Shown here in pieces: positions 5,130-47,859 of a stretch of 64,000 nucleotides of DNA. The stretch lies in the IMG/VR virus record IMGVR_UViG_3300029210_000253. One strand, written 5' to 3'. A program made the translations under genes and the position numbers. The notes under the pieces were generated by a model. It ran no database searches, was not told the origin of the DNA, and saw only the letters and a list, made by a program, of their open reading frames with translations. Every line of letters begins with the position of its first letter. The stretch's first letter is position 1. This DNA comes from a virus.

Positions 5130-6008
5130 ATGGGATGTGGTTCATGGACAAGAGATAGTTATGTAAGTTATTCAACAGCAAAAGGTATGAGTGTTTCAAC
5201 GGATGGTATGATTAGCGGTTCTTATTCTAATCAGGATATGTTTAAGGCAAGGAATATTGATTCTGCACTTGATCCTAAGAATGTCATTAGAGAGTGTTGC
5301 GATACAGAGGAACATCCAAACACAATTCCTGTTATTCTTGCACTTGATGTAACTGGTTCTATGGGACAGGCTGCTGTTGAAGTGGCAAAGAAGTTAAATG
5401 TAATTATGACTAAGTTATATGAAAAGGTTACAGATGTTGAGTTCCTTATCATGGGTATTGGTGATTTGGCTTGTGATAGCTGTCCAATTCAGGCTTCACA
5501 GTTTGAATCAGATATTCGTATTGCTGAACAACTTGACAAGATTTATTTTGAATTTGGCGGTGGTGGAAACAGTTATGAATCCTATACAGCAGCATGGTAT
5601 TTCGGTTCTCGTCACACAAAGCTTGATTGTTTAAATCGTGGAAGAAAAGGAATTATTATTACAATGGGAGATGAGCAGTTAAATCCATATCTTCCATTTA
5701 AGGGTAGAGGTCATGGTTTATCAGAGGTAACAGGTGATAATCTTCAGTCTGATGTAGAGACTAAGGATTTATACGAAGAGGCTTCTCAGAAGTTTAACAT
5801 TTATCATTTAGATGTAAATCATACTCGCAGATGGGATGAAGAAGAAATTGAGAAGTCTTACAAGAAGTATCTTGATGATACACACTTTAGAAGAGTAACT
5901 ATGGATAGTATTACAAATGAGATTGTAGATATTATTGTTAGTGAAGCAGAGAATAATGTTACAGATATAGTTACTACACCTTCTAATTCAGAAGGAATTA
6001 CTTGGTAG
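5130..6008 (+). CDS. von Willebrand factor A (vWA) domain protein
   Basis: MIDAS motif D-x-S-x-S in LALDVTGSMGQAA. Start moved to ATG 5130 behind GAGGAGGA RBS (track start 5121). Confidence 0.7.
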   Translation: MGCGSWTRDSYVSYSTAKGMSVSTDGMISGSYSNQDMFKARNIDSALDPKNVIRECCDTEEHPNTIPVILALDVTGSMGQAAVEVAKKLNVIMTKLYEKVTDVEFLIMGIGDLACDSCPIQASQFESDIRIAEQLDKIYFEFGGGGNSYESYTAAWYFGSRHTKLDCLNRGRKGIIITMGDEQLNPYLPFKGRGHGLSEVTGDNLQSDVETKDLYEEASQKFNIYHLDVNHTRRWDEEEIEKSYKKYLDDTHFRRVTMDSITNEIVDIIVSEAENNVTDIVTTPSNSEGITW

Positions 6009-6025
6009 GATAGGAGATTTAAGAG

Positions 6026-7123
6026 ATGAAAGACATTAAGATTGTGATAGGTGCTAATTTTGGAGATTGTGGAAAAGGATTAATGACAGATTATTTCTCA
6101 CAGAAACCTAATAGTATTGTTGTTTGTTCAAATGGTGGTGCTCAGAGAGGACATACCGTAACAACGCCTGGTGGAATCAGACATGTCTTTCATCATTTTG
6201 GATCTGGAACATTCACTCATGCAAGTACATATTTATCTGAGGATTTTATTGTTAATCCAATTATTTTTAAGCAGGAATATGATGAGTTGATGAAATTAGG
6301 ATATATTCCAAATGTTTATATCAATCAAGATTGTATGTTGACTACACCTTTTGATATGATGGCAAATCAGATTATAGAGGAAAATCGTGGGAAAAATAAA
6401 CATGGTAGTTGTGGCTTGGGAATTTTTGAAACTATCAAAAGATATAAAGCTGGTATAACTGATGTAGATGATCATATCAGGGAATATTACTTAGAACAAT
6501 TTGAAAGAGAGAATATTATATTAACAGATGAATGGTCAAGAATATTCCTTGATAATGGTATATTTGAACACTTTTTAGATGATTGGGATTTTATGAATAA
6601 TCACTCATTGGCTATATCAGATAATTATTTTTTAAATCAGTTTGATAATATTGTATTTGAAGCTGCACAAGGTTTATTGCTTGATCAGAATAACACAGAA
6701 TATTTTCCACATCTAACACCATCTAATACAGGTATTAAAAATCCCAAGAGAATAATTGAAAATGTTGAATGGAATGAAGAGATAAACATTGAAACTTGTT
6801 ATGTGTCTCGTGCATATCTTACACGGCATGGTACAGGAAAATTTCCATCAGAGTGTGATAAAAATCAGATCAACAAATATATTTTTGATAAAACTAATAT
6901 ACCAAATCCATTCCAGGATACATTGAGATATGGAACATTAGATTTAAAAGAATTGTATAACAGATGCAGTAAGGATGTAGGAGATTTTGGAAATAAGAAA
7001 TCATTAGCGCTTATGCACTGCAATGAATGTGACTGGGATGACGAAGAGTTGATTAGCCTATTTAAAGGTTGGAATATATATTATTCTGATGGAGAGACAA
7101 GAGAAGATATTAGATTGAGGTAA
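6026..7123 (+). CDS. adenylosuccinate synthetase homolog, short PurA/PurZ type (365 aa)
   Basis: GANFGDCGKG matches PurA GDEGKGK, NGGAQRGHT matches GG(H)NAGHT, HGSCGLGI matches TTGRGIGP. AGGAGA RBS. Confidence 0.75.
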   Translation: MKDIKIVIGANFGDCGKGLMTDYFSQKPNSIVVCSNGGAQRGHTVTTPGGIRHVFHHFGSGTFTHASTYLSEDFIVNPIIFKQEYDELMKLGYIPNVYINQDCMLTTPFDMMANQIIEENRGKNKHGSCGLGIFETIKRYKAGITDVDDHIREYYLEQFERENIILTDEWSRIFLDNGIFEHFLDDWDFMNNHSLAISDNYFLNQFDNIVFEAAQGLLLDQNNTEYFPHLTPSNTGIKNPKRIIENVEWNEEINIETCYVSRAYLTRHGTGKFPSECDKNQINKYIFDKTNIPNPFQDTLRYGTLDLKELYNRCSKDVGDFGNKKSLALMHCNECDWDDEELISLFKGWNIYYSDGETREDIRLR

Positions 7124-7127
7124 AAAT

Positions 7128-7595
7128 ATGAGATTAAGTGAAATTGCAGAATGGATAGTAAAAAATAATCCAGACTGTCTTATGGTGCCAAATTATATTG
7201 TTGTTAATGGTTGCAGAGAAGACTGGTATGAAGAATCATTAATCGAACCACTTATGAACCATTGGATGTACGAAGATTTAGGTTTATGTGATTGTGGTTG
7301 TCCTGAATATACATATGAAGTAATCAGAAAATTTTTACATATTCGTCAGGATTGGCGAGAAAATAAACTTGAATATACCGAAGTTCTTAATAGGTATAAA
7401 AGAGATTTACATGTTGAGGACAATGACAACAATCAATTTGGATTGCTTCAGTTCATGATGTATATTTTAGATGAACATGAATTCATAGAGCATGGTAGTA
7501 GTATCACAGGTTGTTGGCTTACCGAAAAAGGTGAAATGCTATTGGTTACTTTAGATGCATGGCATGAAAAGAATATGAAAACAGAAGCCGATTAA
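7128..7595 (+). CDS. hypothetical protein (155 aa)
   Basis: ORF with GAGGT RBS. Confidence 0.5.
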   Translation: MRLSEIAEWIVKNNPDCLMVPNYIVVNGCREDWYEESLIEPLMNHWMYEDLGLCDCGCPEYTYEVIRKFLHIRQDWRENKLEYTEVLNRYKRDLHVEDNDNNQFGLLQFMMYILDEHEFIEHGSSITGCWLTEKGEMLLVTLDAWHEKNMKTEAD

Positions 7596-7620
7596 ATGTT
7601 GGTTTCAATAGGAGAATCTA

Positions 7621-7983
7621 ATGGATATATTATTCGGTTACGACTGTATAGATAGTTGTGATTGCGATAAAAGTAGCAGTTGCAAATATGCTAAACATAA
7701 ATTTATTCCATTTAAAATTTCACATTTACTATTTGTTTATCCAAGATGTATCAAATTGAGTGGCACAAATAAATGTCCATACAATAAAACAAGAAACTAT
7801 ACATGTGCAAGTTGTGCCAATAGTAATTCATTCGAAGAATGTGATATTCCTTTTAATGAGAGAAAACCATATATTCCTAAAGATAGGTGGAAGAAATATA
7901 GTAGATGTGGTAGTTATAAAAAATGTAAATGGGCAGATGACTGTTTATATGATGGTGTGTATGTAAGCAGAAATCAGCTCTAA
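7621..7983 (+). CDS. hypothetical Cys-rich protein (16 Cys in 120 aa)
   Basis: ORF with TAGGAGAA RBS; CxxC and CxC clusters. Confidence 0.5.
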   Translation: MDILFGYDCIDSCDCDKSSSCKYAKHKFIPFKISHLLFVYPRCIKLSGTNKCPYNKTRNYTCASCANSNSFEECDIPFNERKPYIPKDRWKKYSRCGSYKKCKWADDCLYDGVYVSRNQL

Positions 7984-8308
7984 CTTGTTTAGAGTGTTAA
8001 TTATTATCTACTACTTATTATATCTACTATTTATATCTGTGGCAGTTCTTGCAAAATTTTACATGAACTTCATCTGAGTTTTCAAAAGTTATTGTCAAAA
8101 AATGTAATAACATCCGCCATAGGAAAATATGATTATTCCGCTGCGGCGAAGCCGCCTATCCGGAACAATGGTTTCCTCATTCCGGACAGGTGGTGTAAAA
8201 GCACCCGTAATATTCAAAAATACAAAAGGAATAACAGAAAGGATATGCACCCGAAGAACCGAACTATATAGATATGTCGGTATTCGGTGCGGCAAGTTAA
8301 GATAGGAG
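7984..8308. promoter_or_regulatory. 325-nt non-coding island with GC-rich hairpins and short direct repeats; candidate structured RNA or regulatory region
   Basis: Stops in all + frames. Hairpins GCGGC-GAA-GCCGC (8143-8155) and TCCGGA...TCCGGA (8159-8186). Long-range pairing GCACCCGAA...TTCGGTGC. Direct repeats ATCTACTA near 8008-8030. Confidence 0.3.
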
Positions 8309-8644
8309 TTGGCTATGTTATTAACAAATAGATTTCCAAACGAAAATCGCTCAGGTCTTCAAGAATACTATTGTGACTTAACACGAGAAATAGATCGGCT
8401 TCTTGGATTATCACCAGATCAATACTGGAAGCATTATATTCTGGCAGATAGCACAATGCTAAAGGACAAGTGTCTTGCAATTAGAATTCCTGGCGGTACA
8501 GTTGGTGGAATTTGGATTGATGATGAGAATATTATTACGAAGGTATTTGTAGACACTGAGTATTATGTTATTGAAGAATATCCAATAGATATTAATGAAA
8601 AACTGGCACATTTTGTAGGAGAGAAGATTGAATTTGTTGATTAA
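8309..8644 (+). CDS. hypothetical protein
   Basis: ORF with TAGGAG RBS. Confidence 0.5.
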   Translation: MAMLLTNRFPNENRSGLQEYYCDLTREIDRLLGLSPDQYWKHYILADSTMLKDKCLAIRIPGGTVGGIWIDDENIITKVFVDTEYYVIEEYPIDINEKLAHFVGEKIEFVD

Positions 8645-8659
8645 GAGAAAGGAATAAAT

Positions 8660-9016
8660 ATGGGAACAGATATTACTATGTTTGCAGAAGTTCGTAAAAA
8701 TAAGAAATGGACAAAGGTAGAAAGTGTATTTAAAAATCCTTGGTATCGCGAAGATAGAGTAATTGACGAATGGAATCGGCCATATACTGATCGACCTTAT
8801 GATGGTCGAAATTATGATTTATTTGCAATTCTTGCAGATGTAAGAAATGGAACTGGTTTCGCTGGATGTAGGACTTCTTATGGGTTTAATCCAATTAGTA
8901 CACCTAAAGGACTGCCAGAAGATATTACAGACGAAGTAAAAGAACTTTTATGGAATGATGGATATGCAAACTCATATTATACATTAAAGGAATTGAAAGA
9001 TTATGATTGGGATTAG
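8660..9016 (+). CDS. hypothetical protein
   Basis: ORF with AAAGGAA RBS. Confidence 0.5.
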   Translation: MGTDITMFAEVRKNKKWTKVESVFKNPWYREDRVIDEWNRPYTDRPYDGRNYDLFAILADVRNGTGFAGCRTSYGFNPISTPKGLPEDITDEVKELLWNDGYANSYYTLKELKDYDWD

Positions 9017-9061
9017 AAAGTCATTCATGTAGGTGTTATTAGTGAAGCTCAGTATATAGAA

Positions 9062-9337
9062 ATGAAAAGAATAGGAAAGAATCCAGATAGCTGGAGTGGA
9101 GATACTTCTGGGTGGGATATTGTTGTAGTATCGGCGGATACTATGGACAAGATTTTAAATAAAACTATCAGTAGAAATGATCGACTTAAATATTATGTAC
9201 AAGTGGATTTCAAACCAATTACATATAGAGAGTGTTGTTACAATTTTTTAAAGGACACAATTCCAGCGTTAGAAGAACTTGTTCCTGATGGTGGTACAGA
9301 GGAAGATGTACGAATTATTTTCAATTTTGATTGTTGA
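9062..9337 (+). CDS. hypothetical protein
   Basis: ORF in dense array. Confidence 0.45.
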   Translation: MKRIGKNPDSWSGDTSGWDIVVVSADTMDKILNKTISRNDRLKYYVQVDFKPITYRECCYNFLKDTIPALEELVPDGGTEEDVRIIFNFDC

Positions 9338-9362
9338 AATACGTGTTTCATGGAGAAATATA

Positions 9363-9503
9363 ATGAGAAGATTATGGAACAAATGGAAGAACTATTGTCT
9401 TAAAACTGGAAAGGATTATACGATGATGCCAACATTAATTGTTTATTATATTTGTTGGCTTACATTTTTAATCTTATTTGGACGATGGTTAGGAGAATGG
9501 TAG
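9363..9503 (+). CDS. small membrane protein (47 aa); 3' part of track ORF 9279-9503
   Basis: GGAGAAATATA RBS before ATG 9363; hydrophobic C-terminal half. Confidence 0.3.
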   Translation: MRRLWNKWKNYCLKTGKDYTMMPTLIVYYICWLTFLILFGRWLGEW

Positions 9504-9513
9504 GTGATAAATT

Positions 9514-9867
9514 ATGATGATTGCAGGTATGTATGATGTTGAAGACGAAGTTTATTATTATACAAATAATTTTGTCGATTTCTATGATAAAAATGAGAAT
9601 AAAATACCAGAGGAAGAATTAAAAGAATGGGCTATGTTTCTGAATAGCCCTTGGAGAGAAAAAGGTGAGAAATACGTTACAAGACGTACAAACATCATTT
9701 GGGGTGAAGAACATCTATGGGAAACATGTTATAGGGTAATGAGTCGTGATTTTGGTTGCTCTAGTATCCTTGGCTATGGCGATACACCAAGAGAGTCTTT
9801 CGAAAATTGTGTCTCTAATTTTGCAAAGGTACAAGAGAAATACAATTCAGAAGGAAAGCAATTTTGA
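9514..9867 (+). CDS. hypothetical protein
   Basis: TTAGGAGAA RBS. Confidence 0.5.
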   Translation: MMIAGMYDVEDEVYYYTNNFVDFYDKNENKIPEEELKEWAMFLNSPWREKGEKYVTRRTNIIWGEEHLWETCYRVMSRDFGCSSILGYGDTPRESFENCVSNFAKVQEKYNSEGKQF

Positions 9868-9878
9868 GGTGAAAAGCA

Positions 9879-10157
9879 ATGTATGTAGAGAATATTGTAA
9901 TAGGAAAGCCGGTTGTAGAGCCACAGCATTTATTTGCTTTAGACGAAGATGACTGGAATAGAGTAGAAAAAGAGAAAACTTATTATACAGAAGAGCGTTT
10001 CTTGCCAAGAATTCTTGTGGACATTGGTATCTATCCATCTATTAGTGAGATTCGTAGAAATAAGCCGCAGCTGGTGATCAACTTAGACCATATGGATTTT
10101 ATGGATGGATTAAAGGTAAGTAAGAAACGAAAATTATGGATTGCGATTGGAGAATAA
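9879..10157 (+). CDS. hypothetical protein
   Basis: GAGGTGAAAAG RBS. Confidence 0.5.
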   Translation: MYVENIVIGKPVVEPQHLFALDEDDWNRVEKEKTYYTEERFLPRILVDIGIYPSISEIRRNKPQLVINLDHMDFMDGLKVSKKRKLWIAIGE

Positions 10158-10161
10158 GCTT

Positions 10162-10689
10162 ATGAAGACGTTAATTGTTATAGATATGCAGAACGATTTT
10201 ATTACAGGACCATTGGGAACGACAGAAGCACGAGCAATCGTACCGAATGTAAAGAAGAAGGTTGAAGAATATCGAAAGAACGGATATAAAATTATTTTTA
10301 CAAGAGATACGCATGGAATGTTCTATCTTGATACAGCTGAAGGAAAGAAACTTCCTGTTGAGCATTGCATTAAAGATACAGATGGTTGGCAGATTGGAAT
10401 TGAAGTTACACCAGACAATTATAAGTTTATAGATAAAACTTCTTTTGGATATGCAGATTGGAAAGAAATCTTTCCAGATTATTATTATAAATCAGGAAAC
10501 GATAAAATAGAGTTAATTGGCGTATGTAGTGATATCTGTGTGATCTCGAATGCACTTATCCTTAAAGCTACTTATCCAGAAGTTGATATTACTGTAGATG
10601 CAAGCTGTTGTGCAGGTTCTACACCAGAGAAACATAAAGCTGCATTGGATGTCATGAAAAGCTGCCAGATTAATGTGATTGGAGAATAA
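10162..10689 (+). CDS. pncA: isochorismatase-family cysteine hydrolase, nicotinamidase/pyrazinamidase-like
   Basis: N-terminal KTLIVIDMQNDF and catalytic-Cys motif GVCSDICV. Start moved to ATG 10162 behind TGGAGAATAA (track 10141). Confidence 0.75.
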   Translation: MKTLIVIDMQNDFITGPLGTTEARAIVPNVKKKVEEYRKNGYKIIFTRDTHGMFYLDTAEGKKLPVEHCIKDTDGWQIGIEVTPDNYKFIDKTSFGYADWKEIFPDYYYKSGNDKIELIGVCSDICVISNALILKATYPEVDITVDASCCAGSTPEKHKAALDVMKSCQINVIGE

Positions 10690-10861
10690 TATTATAGATC
10701 TTGTAGGATATTGGTTAATGACATTAGTTGTAACAATTTTTGTCGTAATTATATTTGGTTATGATTTAGACTTTAAAGAAAAAGCAAAAATGTGTCTGTG
10801 CGAGGCACTTCTAATGGCAATGCTGATTATTGCAGTATGGTTAATGATAGGTGGGAAATAA
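10679..10861 (+). CDS. small two-TM membrane protein
   Basis: Hydrophobic 60-aa ORF; start ambiguous (TTG 10679 or ATG 10724). Confidence 0.4.
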   Translation: MENNIIDLVGYWLMTLVVTIFVVIIFGYDLDFKEKAKMCLCEALLMAMLIIAVWLMIGGK

Positions 10862-10862
10862 G

Positions 10863-11030
10863 ATGACAGATGATAAACCATTCGATAAAGAATTATTCTA
10901 TCGTTTATGTGAGAAATATAATGTAGAGCTTTCCGATAAGTACGATAAACCAATGATAAAAGAATCTGATGGTACAGTAAGGTCATTAACCGATAAAGAT
11001 GTTTTAAATATATTGGAGGTAAACAGATGA
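10863..11030 (+). CDS. small protein (55 aa)
   Basis: ATG 10863; stop overlaps the next start (ATGA at 11027-11030). Confidence 0.4.
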   Translation: MTDDKPFDKELFYRLCEKYNVELSDKYDKPMIKESDGTVRSLTDKDVLNILEVNR

Positions 11031-11761
11031 GATTCAAAGGAGATATTATCATTACTGATCCATGTTATATCTGTAAAGAAAAAGAGCTGGTTGGAGAATA
11101 TCCTAAAAGAGATGATTATTTTATCTATGGGACAGATATTGAAAAGTATCCTGATGCAGTGAGAGAAGTAATTGATATTAGCAAAGAATGTTCAGAAATG
11201 GTAAAGGTATTAGAACAGTTAGATAAAGCTTTGGGCCATACAGATCCTGAATATCGTAAGAAACATTCAAGAACACATTTTGTATCTAAGATATATGAAG
11301 AATGCAATAAAAAATATAAAGAGGCATTAGATGAATATTATGAATTGAATGAGGATGATTGGGAAAAGTCTAATTTAGGTGAAAATATGGAAGTCCTTGG
11401 AATCAATACGTATATTAGTCGTGATACTTTATATGGTGATTGGAGTTGTACAACTTATAACTCTGACACCAAAGAGAAACTTGGAGAATTTTGCGCTGAT
11501 GTAGGTGGGGTGGCAGTATTTCTTCTGGATGAAGTTCTGAAATATAATCCAGATTATGATGATCATATTGCTAAACCATGGACAACTACTTTGATTAAAG
11601 ATTTTGATGGAGAAGTAAATTTTGAAATCATTCACGATGAAGTTAGTGTAATTGGTAAAGGAAATATTAATTTCGAGACACATCAGACAGGATTTTATGA
11701 GAAGATTCGCACAAACTCTTACTTTGTTGATAAATGGGTGCATTTCGTCAGAAAGGCATGA
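11027..11761 (+). CDS. hypothetical protein (244 aa)
   Basis: TTGGAGGTAAACAG RBS. Confidence 0.55.
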   Translation: MRFKGDIIITDPCYICKEKELVGEYPKRDDYFIYGTDIEKYPDAVREVIDISKECSEMVKVLEQLDKALGHTDPEYRKKHSRTHFVSKIYEECNKKYKEALDEYYELNEDDWEKSNLGENMEVLGINTYISRDTLYGDWSCTTYNSDTKEKLGEFCADVGGVAVFLLDEVLKYNPDYDDHIAKPWTTTLIKDFDGEVNFEIIHDEVSVIGKGNINFETHQTGFYEKIRTNSYFVDKWVHFVRKA

Positions 11762-11966: not shown

Positions 11967-12998
11967 ATGATTGATGAGATTAAGAAAAAAGTCAGTAGTG
12001 GAGAATATGATTTTCTAAGAACCAATGAGCATCTTGGAAAGAATATTATTCTTCTTGGTTTGGGTGGTAGTTATGCCTATAGCACTAATGTAGAGAATTC
12101 GGACTTGGATTGCCGCGGCTGTGCCTTAAATAGCAAGATGGATATTTTGACTAATCAGAATTTTGAACAGTTCGTAAATGAACAGACTGATACAACAATA
12201 TATTCGTTCAATAAGTTAGTTTCGTTATTACTGAATGTAAATCCTAATACTATTGAGTTGTTAGGATTAAAGCCTGAGCATTATTTATACGTAACATCGA
12301 TTGGTCAGGAATTATTAGATAATGCCCATTTATTTTTATCCAGGAAAGCTGTGTATTCTTTTGGTGGTTATGCGAACCAGCAGCTTCGGCGTTTAAGTAA
12401 TAAGGCGGCAAGAGTAGTAGGGCAAGAAGAAAGAGAACAACATATTCTCAATAGTATTATGAATGCCGTATATACATTTCCTAGCAAATATGCTTATTAT
12501 CCAGAAGATTCACTTAAGCTCTATATTGATAAGTCAGATAAAGAAGATTATAATACAGAAATTTTCATGGATATGAATTTTAAACATTATCCACTGAGAG
12601 ATTATAAAGCAATGTGGTCTGAAATGAACTGTGTAGTAAAAGATTATGCGAAGATTGGGAAGCGTAATCAGAATGCTATCGAACATGGAAAACTAGGAAA
12701 ACACATGATGCATTTAGTTCGTCTTTATTATATGTGTTTTGACATTTTAGAGAATGAAAAAATTGTTACATACAGAGGAAAAGAACATGACTTATTGATG
12801 GATATTCGCAATGGTAAATATCTGGACGGTAACGATCAGCCGATTCCTGAATTTTATGAGTTGGTGGATGAGTTGGATAAAAGATTAGCTTATGATAAGA
12901 AAAATACTTCTTTACCAGAGAATCCTGATTATAATGCAGTAAATGAATTTATGGCAAGTGTTAATGAGAGAGTTGTAAAAGGAGAAATTAAATGTTAG
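11967..12998 (+). CDS. Pol-beta-superfamily nucleotidyltransferase
   Basis: GS-x9-SDLD motif in LGLGGSYAYSTNVENSDLDCRG, typical of minimal nucleotidyltransferases. Confidence 0.5.
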   Translation: MIDEIKKKVSSGEYDFLRTNEHLGKNIILLGLGGSYAYSTNVENSDLDCRGCALNSKMDILTNQNFEQFVNEQTDTTIYSFNKLVSLLLNVNPNTIELLGLKPEHYLYVTSIGQELLDNAHLFLSRKAVYSFGGYANQQLRRLSNKAARVVGQEEREQHILNSIMNAVYTFPSKYAYYPEDSLKLYIDKSDKEDYNTEIFMDMNFKHYPLRDYKAMWSEMNCVVKDYAKIGKRNQNAIEHGKLGKHMMHLVRLYYMCFDILENEKIVTYRGKEHDLLMDIRNGKYLDGNDQPIPEFYELVDELDKRLAYDKKNTSLPENPDYNAVNEFMASVNERVVKGEIKC

Positions 12999-17532: not shown

Positions 17533-17758
17533 ATGATGGAAGATATTTGCTTTTTTTAAATCATGGTTATCTGTAGGTTTTGTATCAATGTTGTTGATGC
17601 AAGCTTATATGTATAGAAAAGTAGATTTTTCTATAAAATACATAACTAAAGACTTTTTAGTAGATTCAATTGTTATGACATGTTTGGGTTATATTATGGC
17701 ATTAATCTTGTTTATAAGAACATTTAGTGATTTTCTTGATTGGTTATTTTATTTTTAA
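17533..17758 (+). CDS. small membrane protein, continuous only if one T is removed from a T7 tract (MMEDICFF | KSWLSVGFVSMLLMQ...); otherwise a 56-aa ORF from ATG 17588
   Basis: GGTGAGGA RBS before ATGATG at 17533. Frame stops at TAA immediately after a T7 run; the +1 frame continues as a hydrophobic ORF to 17758. Confidence 0.3.
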
Positions 17759-17783
17759 TATATAAAAAGAAAGGATAAAACAA

Positions 17784-20396
17784 ATGATGGAAGGTTTAAG
17801 TAGCAAGGAAGTTCTACAGAATAGAGAGCTTCACGGTAGTAACAAACTCCCAGAGCCAAAATTGAATAAGTGGTATGATTTCGCAAAAGAAGCATTAAGT
17901 GAAAAAATTACAATGATTCTTATTGCAATTGCAGTATTACAGTTGGTTCTTGGTATCATGGGAGTTATGGATTTGGCAGATCCCATTATGATTTTAGTTG
18001 TCTTAGGTATTGTAACCTGTATTGCAGTAAAAACTGGATTAGGTGTTCAGAAATCAGCAGCAGAACTAAGAGCTAAAACATCTGTCAGGTATTGTGACGT
18101 AATTCGTGATGGAAAAGTACAGATAATTAATAAAAATGATTTGGTAGTGGGCGATTTAGTATGTGTTGGAATGGGACAGGAAATTTTTGCAGATGGTTAT
18201 TTAGTAGAAGGGAAAATCTCTGTAAATAATGCAGCTATTAATGGAGAAACAAAAGAGTGTGTTAAAACACCAATTCCTGAGTACGTACATACTAAAACAA
18301 CTTCTACATCAGCTTATACAAATCAGAATTGTTTATTTGCTGGTACTACCGTTATGAGTGGTGAAGGCAAGATGATTGTAACGGATGTTGGTATCAACAC
18401 TGTCAACGGTGATACATTAGTAAAGATGCAGACATTGGAGGCACCAAAGACTGCATTAGATATTGCATTAGATAACTTATGTGATTTTATTTCTAAATGG
18501 GGAACTATTGCAGCAGTTATTACTTTTGCAGTATTAACTATTTCGGGTATCTTAAATGTAGGGTTTGGAAAATATTTTAGTGGTGGAGTGTTAAACATCA
18601 TTCAGAAGTTTGCTCAGAATTTTTCAGTAGCTTTAACCATTATTGTAGCAGCTGTTCCTGAAGGACTTCCGTTAATTGTAAAGCTTGTCACTAAACAAAA
18701 TGTCAAAATAATGGAAGGATTTAACATCCTTGCAAAGAATCCTGGGAAAATTCCAGAATTAGCTTATGTCGATCTAATTTGTACTGATAAGACAGGAACT
18801 TTAACAACCGGTATTATGACGCCAAAAGTAATTATCGATGGAGCTGGTAATGAAGTAGATAAGAATTCTGATTTATGGAAGGTTATTAAAGCAAATATTA
18901 GTTTAAATAACAGTGCCACATTTGACTCAGAGAATAATATTACAGGTGGTAATTCAATTGATAGAGCAGTTTTAAGCCTGATTAAACCTGACGACTATAC
19001 TGATATTTGCAAAAGAAATCCTTTAATTCAGAAACAGGTATTTAATAGTCAGAATAAGTATTCTGCTTTTGAGAGTAAATATAATTGGGGTGACTCATTT
19101 ACATATTATAAAGGCGCTCCTGAGAAATTGCTTGAGCATTGTACACATTGGATGGATTTAGAAGCTATTCCATTTCATGAAAATGAAAAAGAGGAATTGT
19201 GTGAAAAGATTAAGTCTATGACAGAAAGATCTATTAGGTGTATTGCACTTGCATATTCTAATAGCCCTCTTGTAGAGAATGTATTACCAGATGATATGAT
19301 CTTCTTAGGAGTGATTGGTGTAGTTGATCCTGTTAGAGCAGAGGTTCCAGCAGCTGTAGAAACAGCTCATAAAGCCGGTATTCAAGTAATCGAGATTACA
19401 GGTGACTGTATCGAAACTGCAAGAGCTGTTGCTGCCGAGTGTGGTATTTATAAAGATGGAGATGTAGCCTTAACAAATGATGAATTCGAAGCTATGACAG
19501 ATGATGAAGTAAAACAGATCATCCCGTCACTGAGAGTCATTTCCAGATGTTCTCCAAATACCAAATTAAGACTTGTTACATTAGCTCAGGAAATTGGAAG
19601 GTCTGTGGCTATGACAGGTGATGGCGTAAATGATAGTCCAGCATTAAAGAGAGCAGACGTTGGATTTGGAATGCAGAGTGGATCTGATGTAGCAAAAGAG
19701 GCCTCAGATATTATTCTTACAGATGACAACTTTGCAAGTGTTGTAAAAGCGGTAGAACTGGGAAGAACATTTATGCATAACATTATGATGTTCTTGGAAT
19801 TCCAGTTACCGATTAACATTTCTTTACTTATTCTAAGTGTTATCTATCCTATGATTACAGCAAGTGCATTACTTGCATCTGTACAAATTCTTATCGTAAA
19901 TATCATTATGGATTCCCTTAATTCGTTATCATTTGGCGGAGAGCCACCAAAAGAAGAATATATGACAGAAAATCCTATTAAGAAGGGTTCTGGATTATTT
20001 ATTCGAGGAGCAAAAAAGAGAATTGCTTTAAGCACAATTACATTTATTGCACTATATGGAGTTATTACATTTGGTTCTATTTCAAAAATGTTCCCAACAG
20101 AGACAGCTACAATGACAGCAAGATTTGCTCTGTTATGCTTTATGGCGGTATTTAATGGTTTTAATATCCGTACTGAACATATTAATTTATTTAATGGTAT
20201 TGGCAAGAATAAAATGTTTTCTGCTATTGCAGTAGGAATTTTTGCTATGACATTTGCAATTTGTAATTTTGCTGGAAATCTCGTAAAGGTCACAGCATTA
20301 GATTTACAGCATTGGATGGTAATTCTGATTCTATCATTTATGGTTATTCCTGTTGACTTAATCAGAAAGATTGTCGAGAGAAAAAAGAATAATTAA
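17784..20396 (+). CDS. P-type (E1-E2) cation-transporting ATPase, Ca2+/Mg2+-type
   Basis: Phosphorylation motif ICTDKTGTLT, hinge TGDGVNDSPAL, N-terminal cation-ATPase segment, about 10 TM helices, 870 aa. Confidence 0.95.
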   Translation: MMEGLSSKEVLQNRELHGSNKLPEPKLNKWYDFAKEALSEKITMILIAIAVLQLVLGIMGVMDLADPIMILVVLGIVTCIAVKTGLGVQKSAAELRAKTSVRYCDVIRDGKVQIINKNDLVVGDLVCVGMGQEIFADGYLVEGKISVNNAAINGETKECVKTPIPEYVHTKTTSTSAYTNQNCLFAGTTVMSGEGKMIVTDVGINTVNGDTLVKMQTLEAPKTALDIALDNLCDFISKWGTIAAVITFAVLTISGILNVGFGKYFSGGVLNIIQKFAQNFSVALTIIVAAVPEGLPLIVKLVTKQNVKIMEGFNILAKNPGKIPELAYVDLICTDKTGTLTTGIMTPKVIIDGAGNEVDKNSDLWKVIKANISLNNSATFDSENNITGGNSIDRAVLSLIKPDDYTDICKRNPLIQKQVFNSQNKYSAFESKYNWGDSFTYYKGAPEKLLEHCTHWMDLEAIPFHENEKEELCEKIKSMTERSIRCIALAYSNSPLVENVLPDDMIFLGVIGVVDPVRAEVPAAVETAHKAGIQVIEITGDCIETARAVAAECGIYKDGDVALTNDEFEAMTDDEVKQIIPSLRVISRCSPNTKLRLVTLAQEIGRSVAMTGDGVNDSPALKRADVGFGMQSGSDVAKEASDIILTDDNFASVVKAVELGRTFMHNIMMFLEFQLPINISLLILSVIYPMITASALLASVQILIVNIIMDSLNSLSFGGEPPKEEYMTENPIKKGSGLFIRGAKKRIALSTITFIALYGVITFGSISKMFPTETATMTARFALLCFMAVFNGFNIRTEHINLFNGIGKNKMFSAIAVGIFAMTFAICNFAGNLVKVTALDLQHWMVILILSFMVIPVDLIRKIVERKKNN

Positions 20397-20415: not shown

Positions 20416-21165
20416 ATGGGATTATTTAGTAAGTTATTTGGAGGAAACAAAACAGAGGTAGAAGAGAAAGTGCAGTCTACACCTGTTAATACGACAGCAT
20501 CAGTAATTGATATGTCTAAGTCAGCTGAAAATCTAAACAAGGTCCTTATTGATATGTCAAAAGGATCTAAAATCGACATGACTAAACATGTTGCAAGAGT
20601 AGCATTGGCAATGGATTATTCAGGCAGTATGGATAGGTTATATTATAACGGGGCTGTACAGAATGTTATTACTAGACTACTTCCAATTGCTTTAAAGTTT
20701 GACGATAATGGAGAATTAGAATCATGGCTATTTTCCAATCAGGAAGAAAGACTTCCAGCAGTAAATGTAAATAATTATGAAAATTATGTACAGAAAGTAA
20801 TGATGAAAGCTTGTATGAGTATGGGCGGAACAAATTACGCACCTGTTTTAAAAGATATGGTCAAGTATTATAAGGATATAGAACCAAGTAGTGTGCCTGC
20901 GTTTATTATCTTCATCACTGATGGTGAAAACTTTGATAAAGCAGAAACAAATAAGATCATCAAGGAGTTATCTAACTACAATATTTTCGTGCAGTTTATT
21001 GGAATTGGAAATGAGAGTTTTACATATCTTAAATCATTAGACAACATGGAAGGTCGTGTACATGACAATACTGGTTTTACAGCTGTAAAAGATATGAATA
21101 AGATGACAGACGGAGAATTATATACTGAGCTTCTTAGACAGTATAAAGATTGGCTGAACAAATAA
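20416..21165 (+). CDS. vWA-domain protein (TerY-like)
   Basis: MIDAS motif in ALAMDYSGSMDR; AGGAAGGAGAAA RBS. Confidence 0.75.
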   Translation: MGLFSKLFGGNKTEVEEKVQSTPVNTTASVIDMSKSAENLNKVLIDMSKGSKIDMTKHVARVALAMDYSGSMDRLYYNGAVQNVITRLLPIALKFDDNGELESWLFSNQEERLPAVNVNNYENYVQKVMMKACMSMGGTNYAPVLKDMVKYYKDIEPSSVPAFIIFITDGENFDKAETNKIIKELSNYNIFVQFIGIGNESFTYLKSLDNMEGRVHDNTGFTAVKDMNKMTDGELYTELLRQYKDWLNK

Positions 21166-21198: not shown

Positions 21199-21840
21199 AT
21201 GGCAAACGTAATCAATATGAGTAAGAATCAGAAAATCAATATGACCAAGGATGATGGAACTGCAATCAAAAACTTTTTCATTGGTGTAAATTGGGATCAG
21301 AATCGGTACGCAGGTGAAGCAGATATTGACTTTGACATTAATGGTTTTTTAACTAATAGTGACCGAAAGGTAACTTATCCAAAAGATATTGTTAATTACA
21401 ATACATATGGCGATGGCAGCGCATATCCATGGGTAGAGTATTCCGGTGATAACCTTACAGGTGATGATTCTCAGGGAATTACTTTCGATGGAAAACATTA
21501 TGATGAGTATTTTATTGTACATGCGGATACATTTCCAAAGGACAGAACAGATTTTACTATCTGCCTGACTATCTTTAGAGCAGTGCAGCGCCTTCAGAAC
21601 TTTGGAATGGTCAATAATGCAATAATGACTATTTGTGATTATGATAATCCAAATGGTACTAAGTGGGAATACGATCTTTCCGAAAATGAAAAGTTCGAAA
21701 GCCTTAATGCAGTAGAAATGGGTAGACTTTATCGATATGGTGATGGGTTTAAATTCCAGGCCCTTGGTTCAGGCTATGTCGGTGGTATGACTGAACTGTT
21801 CAAAAATTTTGGACTTGATATTGATGAAGGGAGAGATTAA
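21199..21840 (+). CDS. terD: TerD-domain protein (tellurite-resistance / Ca-binding stress protein family)
   Basis: INMSKNQKINMTK...GVNWD, SGDNLTGDD, QNFGMVNNA, ALGSGYVGGMTELFKNFGLD match TerD signatures. Confidence 0.9.
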   Translation: MANVINMSKNQKINMTKDDGTAIKNFFIGVNWDQNRYAGEADIDFDINGFLTNSDRKVTYPKDIVNYNTYGDGSAYPWVEYSGDNLTGDDSQGITFDGKHYDEYFIVHADTFPKDRTDFTICLTIFRAVQRLQNFGMVNNAIMTICDYDNPNGTKWEYDLSENEKFESLNAVEMGRLYRYGDGFKFQALGSGYVGGMTELFKNFGLDIDEGRD

Positions 21841-21843
21841 TCA

Positions 21844-22578
21844 ATGAATGGATTAATTTGGTTAATTTTCATTGCGATTATTGTTATTTTATTGTTTTTT
21901 ACAAAGACAGGCAAGAGGATTAGAATGAGGGCTTCTGGTACTGCTGATGAGATTATTACCAAGGACGCATCTACACCAGAAGGTGCCAAAGCATATTACA
22001 ATAAAGCAATTGAAGCTAAAGAACAGGATTACCAGAAAGCAAGTGCAATTCATGCTCAGATGCTTGGAAAGATTGAAAATTACGAGGATCAGCTACGCTC
22101 TTTAAAAAAGGAGAATATGCAGTTGGATTTAAATATCAATTCTTGTGTAGATAAGAATGATGATGAAGGTGCGAAAGTATATTTAAAGCGTCAGCAGGAA
22201 GTAACTGATAAAATTGAAATTATCAAAGATGCTTTAAAGGAATTAAAAGAAAATGCTGCCTTACAGGGAGAAACTGTAAAAGATATTTTTGAAAAGCTTG
22301 GTGAGTTAAAAGCAGAAAAAGAAACTGCTGTACTTACTCTTGAAACAGCTCAAGTGGCAAAGTCATTACAGGCTACTCCTGGTATCAATTCTAGTGAAGA
22401 AGATAAGATGCTGGAAAAGGTTCGTGATGGAATTAAGAAAACCAAAGAAGAATCTGATGGTAACAGGGTAGTGTATGAGAATTCCATCGCTGTTCAGATG
22501 AAGCGTCTTGACAAGAAAATGAAGGATGAAGAAATCCAGAAAAAATTAGATCAGCTAAAGGGGGCGAAGAATAAATGA
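21844..22578 (+). CDS. PspA/IM30 (phage-shock protein A / LiaH)-like coiled-coil protein with an N-terminal TM anchor
   Basis: Long heptad-like coiled coil paralleling PspA (KAIEAKEQDYQKASAIHAQM...LKRQQEVTDKIE...AALQGETV); N-terminal hydrophobic helix. Confidence 0.55.
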   Translation: MNGLIWLIFIAIIVILLFFTKTGKRIRMRASGTADEIITKDASTPEGAKAYYNKAIEAKEQDYQKASAIHAQMLGKIENYEDQLRSLKKENMQLDLNINSCVDKNDDEGAKVYLKRQQEVTDKIEIIKDALKELKENAALQGETVKDIFEKLGELKAEKETAVLTLETAQVAKSLQATPGINSSEEDKMLEKVRDGIKKTKEESDGNRVVYENSIAVQMKRLDKKMKDEEIQKKLDQLKGAKNK

Positions 22579-22707
22579 TTGTACTAAATATCGGTGTTTT
22601 TGTAATCTGTCTTGGTGTATGCTTTGGAGCAGGTTTTATCGTAGGAAAACGTAGGAAGAATAAATAATTCAAGAGTTGGTAGGTGTCATAGCCTACTAAC
22701 CCTATCA

Positions 22708-25206: not shown

Positions 25207-26373
25207 TTGGAAAACAAAGAAAGAGCATTAGCACATATTGAAAAAATTGAATGGGTAAGACCAATTGAAGGAGCAGATAACATCGAATTAATTGGAGTGT
25301 TAGGTTGGATTTGTATTGCAAAAAAGGGAGAATTTCAACCTGGCGATCTAGCCGTTTACATTGAAATTGACAGTAAATGTCCTGAGAATGATGAGAGATT
25401 CGCTTTCTTAGAGAGTAAGAAATACAAAGTCAAAACAATGAAACTCGGAAAATTCAATGTAATCAGCCAGGGACTTGCATTACCTGCAATTTTATTTCCC
25501 GAAGTAGCAAATGATTCAATTGGTACAGATATTACTGAAAAATTACATATTACATATTATTCAACAGATGATATCGCAAGAAAGTCTAATAAAATCGATC
25601 CAAATTCTAAATACAAATCTATGGCAGCTCGCCATAAAAATCTCGCAAAGAAAAAATGGTTCAGATGGTTAATGAAACACAGTTGGGGAAAGAAAATTCT
25701 CTTTCTATTCTTTGGAAAGAAAAAAGATAATCCAAAAGAATTTCCTAAGTGGATTGTTAAAACTGATGAAACGAGAATCGAAAATGCACCGTTTTATTTA
25801 CAAAGCACAGAAAAATGGGTAAAGACAGAAAAATTAGATGGTACAAGTTGCACTTTTGCTGTGGATCACAAGAAAAAAGGCAAGGATAAATTTGAATTTA
25901 TTGTTTGTAGCCGTAATGTAAGACAGGCAGACCGAGATCAGGCATGTTACCACGATAACAATATTTATTGGGAACTCGCTGATAAATATGACATTGAGAA
26001 GAAACTTACAGAATTAGCAATTACTGGTGGTTATGATCGCGTAGTTTTACAAGGTGAAGGCATAGGTTCGGTTCAGGGTAATCCGTATAAATTAAAAGAG
26101 AATGATTTATATATATTTAACCTAATTATTAATGGTATAAGAACAGGAACGGTGGTAATGGCTGAATATTGCGACAATCATGGTTTTAAACATGTGCCGA
26201 TTATTGATACAGCCTACGAACTTCCACATACAATGGAAGAAATGAAACTTGAAGCTGATGGCTACAGTGAGATTAATCCGAAAGTAAAAAGAGAAGGTTT
26301 CGTATATCGATCTCAAGATGGGCAGCAGAGTTTTAAAAACGTTAGCCGTGAGTATTTACTGAAACATTCATAA
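25207..26373 (+). CDS. ATP-dependent RNA ligase (Rnl family)
   Basis: Nucleotidyltransferase motif I KTEKLDGTS (KxDG) and an N-terminal OB-like segment; TTG start. Confidence 0.7.
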   Translation: MENKERALAHIEKIEWVRPIEGADNIELIGVLGWICIAKKGEFQPGDLAVYIEIDSKCPENDERFAFLESKKYKVKTMKLGKFNVISQGLALPAILFPEVANDSIGTDITEKLHITYYSTDDIARKSNKIDPNSKYKSMAARHKNLAKKKWFRWLMKHSWGKKILFLFFGKKKDNPKEFPKWIVKTDETRIENAPFYLQSTEKWVKTEKLDGTSCTFAVDHKKKGKDKFEFIVCSRNVRQADRDQACYHDNNIYWELADKYDIEKKLTELAITGGYDRVVLQGEGIGSVQGNPYKLKENDLYIFNLIINGIRTGTVVMAEYCDNHGFKHVPIIDTAYELPHTMEEMKLEADGYSEINPKVKREGFVYRSQDGQQSFKNVSREYLLKHS

Positions 26374-29917: not shown

Positions 29918-29953
29918 AAGAATAAATAAGTGGCTGAGAAATCAGTCACATCT

Positions 29954-30026
29954 AGCGAATTAGTATAATCAGGTAGTACACTGAGGTTTGATCTCAGAAG
30001 TATCGGTTCAAATCCGGTATTCGCCG
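29954..30026 (+). tRNA. tRNA-Gln (anticodon UUG)
   Basis: Hand-folded cloverleaf: acceptor AGCGAAT/ATTCGCC, U8, D-stem GTAT/GTAC with GG in the loop, anticodon stem CTGAG/CTCAG with loop GTTTGAT (U33, UUG, A37), T-arm ATCGG-TTCAAAT-CCGGT. No encoded CCA. Confidence 0.75.
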
Positions 30027-30173
30027 TCGGCTCTGATTCATCTGTGATGTGGAAAGTCGCAGAACGGTGGCAAGAGGATGTAAAACTTTAAAAACAAATT
30101 TCCCATCGGATTGTTATTGCTTGGTTGATGCGCAGACTTAAGCAACAGAGCCACTTAATAAAACGTTTATGGT

Positions 30174-30242
30174 TTCTCATTGGTGTAATAGGAAGCACGG
30201 CAGCTCACTCTGTAAAACTTGGTTCGAGTCCAAGATGAGGAA
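30174..30242 (+). tRNA. tRNA-like element: canonical T-arm (CTTGG-TTCGAGT-CCAAG) plus a pairing acceptor stem, but no canonical anticodon arm; likely a degenerate tRNA or tRNA 3' fragment
   Basis: Perfect GGTTCGAGTCC T-arm and a 7-bp acceptor (one G-U); the internal 37 nt cannot be folded into standard D and anticodon arms. Confidence 0.3.
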
Positions 30243-30271
30243 GTAATAAAAATAAAAAGGAGTGATAAATA

Positions 30272-47055: not shown

Positions 47056-47859
47056 ATGCCAGTACATGACGATTTAGGTATTAGAATGAAAACATTTTAT
47101 GAGCAGGTTCCAAAGACGAGATTGATACGGCGCTGCCCAGTCGCTATTAGAATTGATGGAAAGGCGTTTCACACGTTTACAAGAAAATTTCAGAAGCCAT
47201 TTGATGAGATTTTAATTAAATCAATGCAAGATACTATGAAATATCTTTGTGAGAATATTCAGGGATGCGTTTTAGGATACACTCAGTCAGATGAGATTAC
47301 ATTAATTCTTGTAGATTATAAAAAACTAACATCCGATGCTTGGTTTGATTACGAAGTGCAGAAAATGTGTAGCATCGCAGCTTCAATGGCAACAATGGCG
47401 TTCAATAAATTTTTTGGAAATAATGTTGGAGATTATTGCACATATAATTCTGAAAGAGAAGATGATACACATGAACAATACGAACATACATTATATTCAG
47501 CAGCCAATAAAGGAGCTATGTTTGATGCTCGTTGCTTCAACATTCCAAAAGAAGAAGTCACTAATCTCGTATACTGGAGGCAACTTGACGCGACTCGCAA
47601 TTCTATTCAGATGGTAGGACAGGCCAATTTCTCACATAAGGAACTTCAGAATAAATCATGCAATCAAATTCAGGATATGTTGATGACTCAGAAAGGTATT
47701 AATTGGAATGATTTCCCAGTTTATCAGAAAAGAGGTAGCTGCTGTATTAAAGAAGTAGACGAGTCTGGTAGAGGAAAATGGATTATTGATAAAAATATTC
47801 CTATTTTTAAAGGTGAGGATAGAGAATATATTGATAAGCTAGTTTTTGTAGACGAGTAA
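47056..47859 (+). CDS. Thg1-like protein (tRNA 3'-5' nucleotidyltransferase family)
   Basis: N-terminal IRIDGKAFHTFTRKFQKPFDE and YTQSDEITLIL match Thg1/TLP signatures. Confidence 0.65.
   Translation: MPVHDDLGIRMKTFYEQVPKTRLIRRCPVAIRIDGKAFHTFTRKFQKPFDEILIKSMQDTMKYLCENIQGCVLGYTQSDEITLILVDYKKLTSDAWFDYEVQKMCSIAASMATMAFNKFFGNNVGDYCTYNSEREDDTHEQYEHTLYSAANKGAMFDARCFNIPKEEVTNLVYWRQLDATRNSIQMVGQANFSHKELQNKSCNQIQDMLMTQKGINWNDFPVYQKRGSCCIKEVDESGRGKWIIDKNIPIFKGEDREYIDKLVFVDE

Follow-up and report, generated by a model that had tools for sequence, protein, structure and literature searches.

Ca2+-transporting P-type ATPases have recently been described in huge gut phages. Chen et al. (bioRxiv, August 2025; Science Advances, February 2026; PMC12880540) found them in the Jug phages, whose genomes of 360-402 kb have a GC content of 27-30% and whose hosts are Bacteroides/Phocaeicola, and the accessible parts of that report describe such pumps as 'not detected previously in phages'. 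According to the same report, the ATPase is also present in 85 other gut phages, 81 of them huge and 4 smaller, where it resembles the pumps of Bacteroidaceae or Bacillota; in the Jug phages it is co-transcribed with an upstream gene of 77-91 amino acids (aa), and these phages transcribe their Ca2+-ATPase, terD and pspA-like genes at high levels in the human gut. Another virus-encoded Ca2+ P-type ATPase, M535L/C785L of Chlorella virus, is functional (Bonza et al. 2010, cited in PMC12880540). Here we analyze 64,000 nucleotides (nt) of the IMG/VR virus record IMGVR_UViG_3300029210_000253, hereafter the window, which carry a gene for a predicted Ca2+ P-type ATPase at 17784..20396 on the + strand.

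An initial annotation, made from the letters of the DNA alone, had taken this gene to be a large transporter inserted by itself. It was found instead to head a conserved cassette of pump, vWA-TerF-like or TerD genes, PspA-like gene and micro open reading frame (micro-ORF). The explanation that we favor as a whole, with a probability of roughly 60%, is that Ca2+ export by the pump would be coupled to Ca2+ sensing or buffering and to membrane stabilization during infection. The novelty that the initial annotation implied for a phage pump was set too high: reports of Ca2+ P-type ATPases in phages appeared in 2025 and 2026, and the window pump is therefore not the first of its kind, but a new, independently acquired member. 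What is newly described here, as leads, is the five-gene cassette, the 30-aa micro-ORF and the recurrent linkage of pump and TerD genes. The pump-Ter-PspA cassette, the micro-ORF and a link with Ruminococcus are not described in the accessible parts of Chen et al. (PMC12880540).

The pump and its ion-binding site

The pump gene starts with ATG and encodes 870 aa, exactly over the extent initially annotated. Five Pfam domains, including Hydrolase and E1-E2_ATPase, were found in the protein, and a hydropathy scan gave about ten hydrophobic segments, which fits the ten transmembrane (TM) segments that had been proposed. Solved Ca2+-ATPases aligned with it end to end, namely ACA8 of Arabidopsis (1.8e-102), LMCA1 of Listeria (2e-90) and human SPCA1 (1e-88). 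The top NCBIfam model was TIGR01517 (calcium-translocating P-type ATPase, PMCA-type), which was passed marginally with 509.4 bits against a cut-off of 507.05, and none of the PMR1, SERCA, H+ and Mg2+ models of NCBIfam reached its cut-off on the pump. A SERCA-type (P2A) identity was rejected on the score of TIGR01116 (338.8 bits against a cut-off of 703.4) and on the hydrophobic residues at site I, and an MgtA-type (P3B) Mg2+-ATPase identity on the score of TIGR01524 (214.8 bits against 610.75).

Motif conservation was judged on more than 80 pump homologues of 68-97% identity. The phosphorylation residue D335, within ICTDKTGTLT, was invariant in all homologues aligned, and K443-GAPE, D515-PVR, T539-GD and T611-GDGVND were invariant or nearly so. 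Every catalytic signature had been claimed for this pump, and this holds for DKTGT, KGAPE, DPVR, TGD, TGDGVND and PEGLP; the exception is the A-domain loop, which reads NGET (N153-G154-E155-T156) and not TGES, with the catalytic Gly-Glu pair retained. The NGE[T/S] loop was invariant in all phage homologues and was also present in bona fide chromosomal pumps, and among the approximately 60 nearest cluster representatives in a library of 1.84 billion proteins, NGE[ST] outnumbered TGES by 36 to 7. Pairwise dN/dS of the pump against its relatives was 0.08-0.12. The family-wide occurrence of NGE[ST], its chromosomal carriers and a dN/dS of about 0.1 led us to reject the loop as a sign of a degenerate pump, and we read it as a probable natural subfamily variant rather than decay. 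The pump gene is intact and under strong purifying selection; the invariant motifs and the low dN/dS thus bear out the selection that had been presumed for a transporter of this size in a phage.

The ion-site residues E293 (TM4, in PEGLP), N678 (TM5), and N706 and D710 (TM6) were also invariant in the homologues. When TM4-TM6 and the catalytic Asp were inspected for decay, as the initial annotation had proposed, D335, E293, N706 and D710 were all retained without variation, and a relic is not indicated. E293, N706 and D710 align with E292, N716 and D720 of LMCA1, which coordinate its single Ca2+ according to cryo-electron microscopy and molecular dynamics (PMC11468904). The acidic residues of site I are missing, with L681 and A788 standing where SERCA has E771 and E908 (SERCA residues from PMC11468904), and therefore only one Ca2+ site is expected. 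Arg795 of LMCA1 has no counterpart in the pump, and Arg-based tuning to alkaline pH is therefore not expected. The best supported assignment is that of a working PMCA-like (P2B) ATPase, which would bind one Ca2+ at the conserved TM4/TM6 site.

The pump might instead move another cation such as Mn2+, as SPCA/PMR1-type pumps do, with the cassette handling the supply or toxicity of transition metals for phage enzymes. The PMR1-type model TIGR01522 was the runner-up with 407 bits, SPCA1 is among the best solved matches, the score of TIGR01517 is only 2 bits over its cut-off, and a response to Zn(II) and Mn(II) has been described for Ter operons (PMC12054061). The PMR1-type score, however, remained far under its cut-off of 798, the best matches among solved structures and hidden Markov models are PMCA-type Ca2+ pumps, and the TerD loops are of the canonical Ca2+-binding type. 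On this balance we consider a transition-metal pump improbable.

A five-gene cassette and its recurrence

Downstream of the pump lie four more genes of the same orientation. The first encodes a vWA-TerF-like, copine-like protein (20416..21165; PF10138, 6.4e-62; Copine, 8.4e-10; phrog_5359), the second a TerD-domain protein with the Ca2+-binding fold (21199..21840; PF02342, 5.4e-35; phrog_5698), and the third a PspA/Vipp1-like coiled-coil protein, a putative member of the ESCRT-III superfamily (21844..22578). The fourth is an unannotated single-TM micro-ORF of 30 aa, MIVLNIGVFVICLGVCFGAGFIVGKRRKNK (22575..22667), the ATG of which overlaps the stop codon of the PspA-like gene (ATGA). From the pump through the vWA and TerD genes to the PspA-like gene, the successive gaps measure 19, 33 and 3 nt, and a Shine-Dalgarno sequence precedes each gene; L116-118 show a 17-nt overlap between pump and vWA genes. 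The cassette is thus tightly packed and probably co-transcribed. Rfam was searched for a riboswitch or leader ahead of the pump gene, and the only match was a tRNA elsewhere in the window.

Conservation of this arrangement was found in a large set of viral contigs. At least 140 contigs of 95-250 kb in IMG/VR carry the pump at 68-97% identity, and in a metagenome protein collection the cassette proteins lie on contigs of up to 338-493 kb, among them metagenomic contigs of 474-493 kb. Practically all loci of sufficient length had the gene order pump, vWA and TerD or three TerD genes, PspA-like gene and micro-ORF, with flanks that vary and are reshuffled even between close relatives. When the search was seeded with the PspA-like protein, 62 loci were obtained, and the pump was upstream in all 57 with sufficient upstream DNA. 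Locus L001 has a pump 97% identical to that of the window but three TerD genes instead of vWA and TerD, indicating that the middle module was swapped by recombination. In L126-L135 (e.g., IMGVR_UViG_3300045988_166216), the vWA and PspA-like proteins are 67-69% identical to those of the window and the pump only 48-49%; this pump groups with the L103 clade (80% bootstrap), and the pattern looks like replacement of the pump gene in situ.

A search of IMG/VR seeded with distant pumps yielded hundreds of P2-type pumps, in 242-518 confirmed stretches. In other viral lineages (L257-L270, L278-L280 and L289; GC 0.25, 0.28, 0.35, 0.46 and 0.49-0.56), two or three tandem TerD genes abut the pump, either upstream or downstream, and these pumps are only 30-36% identical to the window pump. 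The same adjacency, pump-TerD-TerD, is found in MT840059.1, a high-GC GenBank fragment labeled 'Bacteriophage sp.'. The pump-TerD linkage is recurrent in viruses, and the PspA-like gene and micro-ORF are specific to the family of the window. This genomic context supports well that the pump functions with the TerD/vWA proteins and with the PspA-like protein and micro-peptide. In one record, IMGVR_UViG_3300029402_000234 (250,027 bp, 'high-quality'), two different whole cassettes (L142 and L179) are present about 200 kb apart, with pumps 68% and 71% identical to the window pump; the phage either has two cassettes, or two related phages were joined in a chimeric assembly.

Alternatively, the Ter-type proteins, together with the pump and the PspA-like protein, could serve superinfection exclusion or defense against competitors rather than the replication physiology of the phage itself, making the infected or carrier cell refractory to other phages and pore-forming bacteriocins as the plasmid ter operon does. 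In enterobacterial ter operons, phage inhibition and resistance to colicins are lost when terD, terC or terZ carries a transposon insertion (summarized in PMC12054061), and the location of the cassette among variable accessory genes with reshuffled flanks is typical of competition and defense loci. On the other hand, TerC, TerB and TelA make up the membrane core of classical Ter systems, and none of them was found among the cassette genes and immediate neighbors scanned; PADLOC gave no defense-system match, and the cassette is near-universal and syntenic in its family, unlike patchy defense islands. We regard an exclusion function as possible and rather doubtful.

The domain features of the downstream proteins were examined in the family. 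The vWA-TerF-like protein has a conserved DxSxS metal ion-dependent adhesion site motif (DYSGS), and its N-terminus (20416-20445) has the conserved sequence MG[FL][FL]xKLFG. This resembles the amphipathic membrane-binding helix alpha-0 with which PspA and Vipp1 begin (MGIFSRF / MGLFDRL). The PspA-like protein of the cassette itself is devoid of such a helix and always carries an N-terminal TM helix in its place. The TerD protein of the window has a variant loop, GDNLTGDD; in many relatives, three tandem canonical TerD genes with the loops GDNRTGEGDGDDE occupy the place of vWA and TerD, and a motif survey found the GDNxTGxGxGDDE loops of TerD and the DxSxS motif of vWA to be conserved.

The likeness of the third downstream protein to PspA was assessed from its predicted fold and from profile matches. 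Its AlphaFold2 model has a pLDDT of 74, and the best Foldseek matches in the PDB were Vipp1/PspA structures (E 3e-4 to 4e-2, TM-score 0.5-0.78), for example 8qbs (3.1e-4) and 4whe (rmsd 1.8 A over 116 columns). The homologue in L099 matches PspA_IM30 with an E value of 1.6e-5, which is below the gathering score of this model, and some family members have precomputed PF04012 matches and the JGI name 'phage shock protein A'. When the family profile was compared with PDB sequences, no PspA was found and the only significant match was a short WH2-like one. This match is to the tandem WH2 actin-binding motif of N-WASP, at residues ~167-207 (EEDKMLEKVRDGIKKTKEE vs RDALLDQIRQGIQLKK, E 3.9e-4), and may be a chance similarity in a charged helix.

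The micro-ORF is well supported. It was present in 75 of the 83 PspA-bearing loci and in 79 loci overall, in 44 distinct DNA and 33 distinct protein versions; pN/pS was 0.33, and synonymous sites were close to saturation. Three residues (M1, F9 and G20) never vary, the C-terminal tail is basic, and an independent gene caller predicts the ORF in L081. The pump loci on Ruminococcus chromosomes lack this ORF, which has no meaningful Pfam match. Its size and topology are those of small single-TM pump regulators (sarcolipin/phospholamban, KdpF, MgtS/MgtR), yet it is coupled to the PspA-like gene.

A regulator of this type had initially been sought at the other end of the cassette, in a small hydrophobic ORF of 226 nt just upstream of the pump (17533..17758, + strand). 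That ORF is not intact in the window, because the ATG at 17533 meets a TAA stop at 17557-17559, leaving an open remnant of 56 aa (17588..17758). The window has a T7 run at 17551-17557 where four close relatives (L003, L081, L001 and L083) have T6, and restoring T6 gives a hydrophobic ORF of 74 aa, which is intact in those relatives. A second homopolymer difference from the close relatives, A4 against A3, occurs at 17777-17780, within 300 nt of the first. The T7 frameshift may be a sequencing error or a real lesion; if the homopolymer differences are sequencing or assembly errors, further frameshifts elsewhere in the window are therefore possible. The 74-aa ORF, which has no family match in Pfam or PHROG, is restricted to the closest relatives; upstream of the pump, a single further branch carries a two-TM ORF of 63 aa that is unrelated to it, and most lineages have unrelated soluble proteins there, with a gap of about 130 nt. 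As the gene at this position is highly variable across the family, conservation gives no backing for a regulator there, and the upstream ORF was rejected as a conserved pump regulator. The conserved single-TM protein is that encoded at 22575-22667.

Phage origin, host and proposed role

All the large ORFs of the window are on one strand, and local GC is 0.31-0.35. PHROG matches include a DnaE-type polymerase, helicase, primase, exonucleases, NAD ligase, RNA ligase and methyltransferases, and an HNH endonuclease is also present. The initial view of a nucleic-acid-centered region therefore applies to the wider window and not to the immediate neighbors of the pump, which are the vWA-TerF-like, TerD and PspA-like genes. 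Capsid and terminase genes were not found within the 64 kb, nor were integrase or lysogeny genes. Two contigs of the pump family are listed in the huge-phage table (HPGC) of Chen et al., where they are rated high-quality by CheckV and are not flagged as Jug clusters. Against GenBank phages, megablast of the region gave no match, and tblastn gave only matches of at most 34% identity, many of them in host-contaminated records.

Two further sets of genes were noted in the window. A short adenylosuccinate-synthetase homologue of 365 aa (6026-7123, + strand; PF00709, 1e-34; phrog_1211) resembles PurZ of phages that replace adenine with 2-aminoadenine. There is also an RNA-repair and tRNA set, consisting of an RlaP-type nucleotidyltransferase (11967-12998), an RNA ligase (25207-26373), a Thg1-like tRNA-His guanylyltransferase (47056-47859), a tRNA-Gln (29953-30028) and a second tRNA-like call (30173-30243) with an abnormal anticodon loop.

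The NGET loop, the lack of capsid and terminase genes in the 64 kb, and the binning of related contigs into bacterial metagenome-assembled genomes (MAGs) in GTDB could be taken to mean that the pump is a non-transporting relic, or that the window is a piece of bacterial chromosome or megaplasmid and the pump an ordinary one. However, NGE[ST] is the majority form among the nearest representatives and occurs in chromosomal pumps, dN/dS is about 0.1, and the single-strand gene array, PHROG replication and repair genes, HNH endonuclease and tRNA, as well as the number of viral contigs with the pump, the two high-quality huge phages among them, point to a phage. We give this account almost no weight.

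The GTDB relatives are of two kinds. The first are low-GC contigs with the whole cassette, which are probably phage contigs binned into MAGs. The second are Ruminococcus/Oscillospiraceae MAG contigs with a GC of 0.40-0.47, whose pumps are 67-70% identical to the window pump and are without the cassette partners. These chromosomal genes, with L091 in a clear housekeeping context, are the closest cellular pumps. The whole pump clade forms a single cluster at 50% identity, and the next representatives are 41-47% identical. In neighbor-joining trees, the chromosomal pumps were monophyletic (87%) and nested within the phage diversity (86 of 100 bootstraps). It is clear that genes have passed, in one direction or the other, between these phages and hosts of Ruminococcus type. 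In addition, L099, which is QTYB01000001.1, scaffold 1 (499,154 bp) of the cultured isolate Ruminococcus sp. AM36-2AA, has a phage-type cassette at 6001-11040. The GC of this region is 0.33, and its phage-like neighbors include an NAD ligase split by an HNH/NUMOD4 endonuclease; the scaffold may represent a prophage of huge size, an episome or the genome of the phage. The source of the window is probably a huge gut phage of Ruminococcus.

The same relationships could mean that the pump is a recently captured Ruminococcus housekeeping gene that aids the host in the Ca2+-rich gut during a carrier, pseudolysogenic or prophage state, with the adjacency to Ter genes being incidental. The identity of 67-70% to chromosomal pumps in a housekeeping context, their position inside the phage clade and the phage-type locus in the cultured isolate are consistent with such a host benefit. 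Arguing against it, the chromosomal pumps have no Ter, PspA-like or micro-ORF neighbors, no integrase or lysogeny gene is seen in the window, and the accessible parts of Chen et al. (PMC12880540) report high transcription of the Jug homologue in vivo. Incidental linkage is also made less likely by the adjacency of TerD to unrelated pumps and by the replacement in situ seen in L126-type phages. We therefore consider this explanation unlikely.

In the explanation that we favor, infection would place the pump in the cytoplasmic membrane of the host, where it would use ATP to export cytoplasmic Ca2+, probably in exchange for H+, the identity of the ion and the direction of transport being presumed. 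Breaches of the envelope by genome injection, superinfection, pore-forming abortive defenses or a premature holin would let Ca2+ leak in. The TerD and vWA proteins, which are cytoplasmic and divalent-cation-binding, would sense or buffer the rise, the PspA-like protein and the micro-peptide would stabilize the membrane, and the pump would bring cytosolic Ca2+ back to a low level. If events follow this order, the benefit would be that an infected Ruminococcus-type cell stays energized through the long cycle of a huge phage.

It is also conceivable, with a low probability, that the cassette of five genes is a Ca2+-triggered module for membrane repair and Ca2+ reset, a prokaryotic-virus analogue of eukaryotic Ca2+-dependent ESCRT-III wound repair. 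TerD and the copine-like vWA protein would then sense entering Ca2+ and recruit or activate a membrane-anchored PspA-like polymer with the 30-aa TM peptide, after which the P2B pump would clear the Ca2+ signal. The micro-peptide might also be a sarcolipin-like modulator of the pump.

Several points weigh against the coupling of Ca2+ export with sensing and membrane stabilization. Specificity for Ca2+ as opposed to Mn2+ cannot be read from the sequence of the pump, and its AlphaFold2 model, from a shallow alignment of 13 sequences at least 85% identical, had a pLDDT of 31.7 and was unusable. The PspA-like protein matches PF04012 (PspA_IM30) over nearly its full length, but with 21.3-25.1 bits (E 2.2e-4) against a gathering score of 33.9. 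As to co-transcription, a promoter scan of the region gave 36 promoter-like sites where 34 were expected, no signal above shuffles, and a terminator scan of the region found none; in the accessible parts of Chen et al. (PMC12880540), moreover, terD/pspA and the ATPase of Jug phages are reported as separate transcription units. In L271-276 no TerD gene adjoins the pump, and the pump-TerD coupling in viral lineages is therefore frequent and not obligatory. Finally, the membrane-leak scenario is drawn from domain functions only.

Bacterial Ca2+ signaling is poorly understood, and TerD proteins have so far been without a clear physiological partner. In the fixed cassette, a predicted Ca2+ exporter is joined with TerD/vWA proteins of Ca2+-binding type, a membrane protein assigned putatively to the ESCRT-III family and a conserved micro-peptide, and the other viral lineages provide evidence for repeated origin of the pump-TerD pairing in phages. 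Together with the second, independent lineage of phage pumps, cassette and pairing make the manipulation of host Ca2+ and membrane integrity by phages directly testable, and work on the system could become tractable with the cultured Ruminococcus isolate, which apparently carries such a phage. If the repair-module reading is true, the recurrent pairing points to a general, undescribed role of Ca2+ signaling in phage-infected bacteria; if the pump is merely a host-derived homeostasis gene, the result is a solid but incremental addition to the reports of 2025-26.

Comparison with described systems

The window pump shares with LMCA1, PMCA and ACA8 the single site II (Glu in TM4, Asn and Asp in TM6) and the lack of site I, and with LMCA1-type pumps the compact size of about 870-880 aa. 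Its identity to these pumps is about 30%, and it differs from them in the NGET loop, from LMCA1 in having L681 and A788 where LMCA1 has Ala691 and Arg795, and from eukaryotic PMCA/ACA pumps in having no calmodulin-binding autoinhibitory extension. The chromosomal Ruminococcus/Oscillospiraceae pumps fall in the same 50%-identity cluster and have the NGE[ST], PEGLP and NIIMDSLNSLSFG motifs in common with it. In contrast to the cassette, the neighbors of the chromosomal Ruminococcus pumps are housekeeping genes (release factor, gpmI, DnaB_2/DnaI-type, ilvA, ridA and leuA), with no Ter, PspA-like or micro-ORF among them.

Classical ter operons (terZABCDEF; IncHI2 plasmids, E. coli O157 and Klebsiella) have been tied to stress from metals or at the membrane, and also to the inhibition of phages and resistance to colicins (PMC12054061). 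These operons and the cassette have in common TerD-domain proteins and a vWA domain of the TerF C-terminal type. The cassette differs in that it is without TerC, TerB, TerA/Z and TelA, has the pump, the PspA-like protein and the micro-peptide in addition, and is phage-encoded. Among PDB structures, the predicted helical-hairpin fold of the PspA-like protein comes closest to Vipp1 and PspA (PspA/Vipp1/IM30 group), from which the protein differs in its TM anchor and its sub-threshold Pfam score; in a broad survey of PspA genomic contexts (PMC11237479), TerD, vWA and calcium have 0 occurrences. The Chlorella virus pump is likened to the window pump by description; it belongs to a eukaryotic giant virus, and a Ter/PspA context is not known for it.

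Jug phages are the closest described case. Probable Jug pumps (L286, L287 and L318, Jug status being presumed) are 31-32% identical to the window pump and have TGES, not NGET. The contigs of L286 type have a GC of about 0.3, are up to 400 kb long and have a soluble ORF of 77 aa upstream of the pump, and in L318 TerD is about 1.7 kb away. The soluble upstream gene of 77-91 aa of Jug phages is absent in the family of the window, whose nearest cellular pumps are those of Ruminococcus and not of Bacteroides; the window was thus rejected as a Jug phage on pump clade, GC and upstream gene, and it represents a second, independent lineage of phage pumps, Ruminococcus-like and not Bacteroides-like. Unlike in Jug phages, the window pump is in one cassette with the vWA/TerD proteins, the PspA-like protein and the micro-ORF. 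Common to both are the presence of terD and pspA-like genes in the genome and a full-length, 10-TM Ca2+ P-type ATPase, apparently derived from the host lineage, in a huge gut phage.

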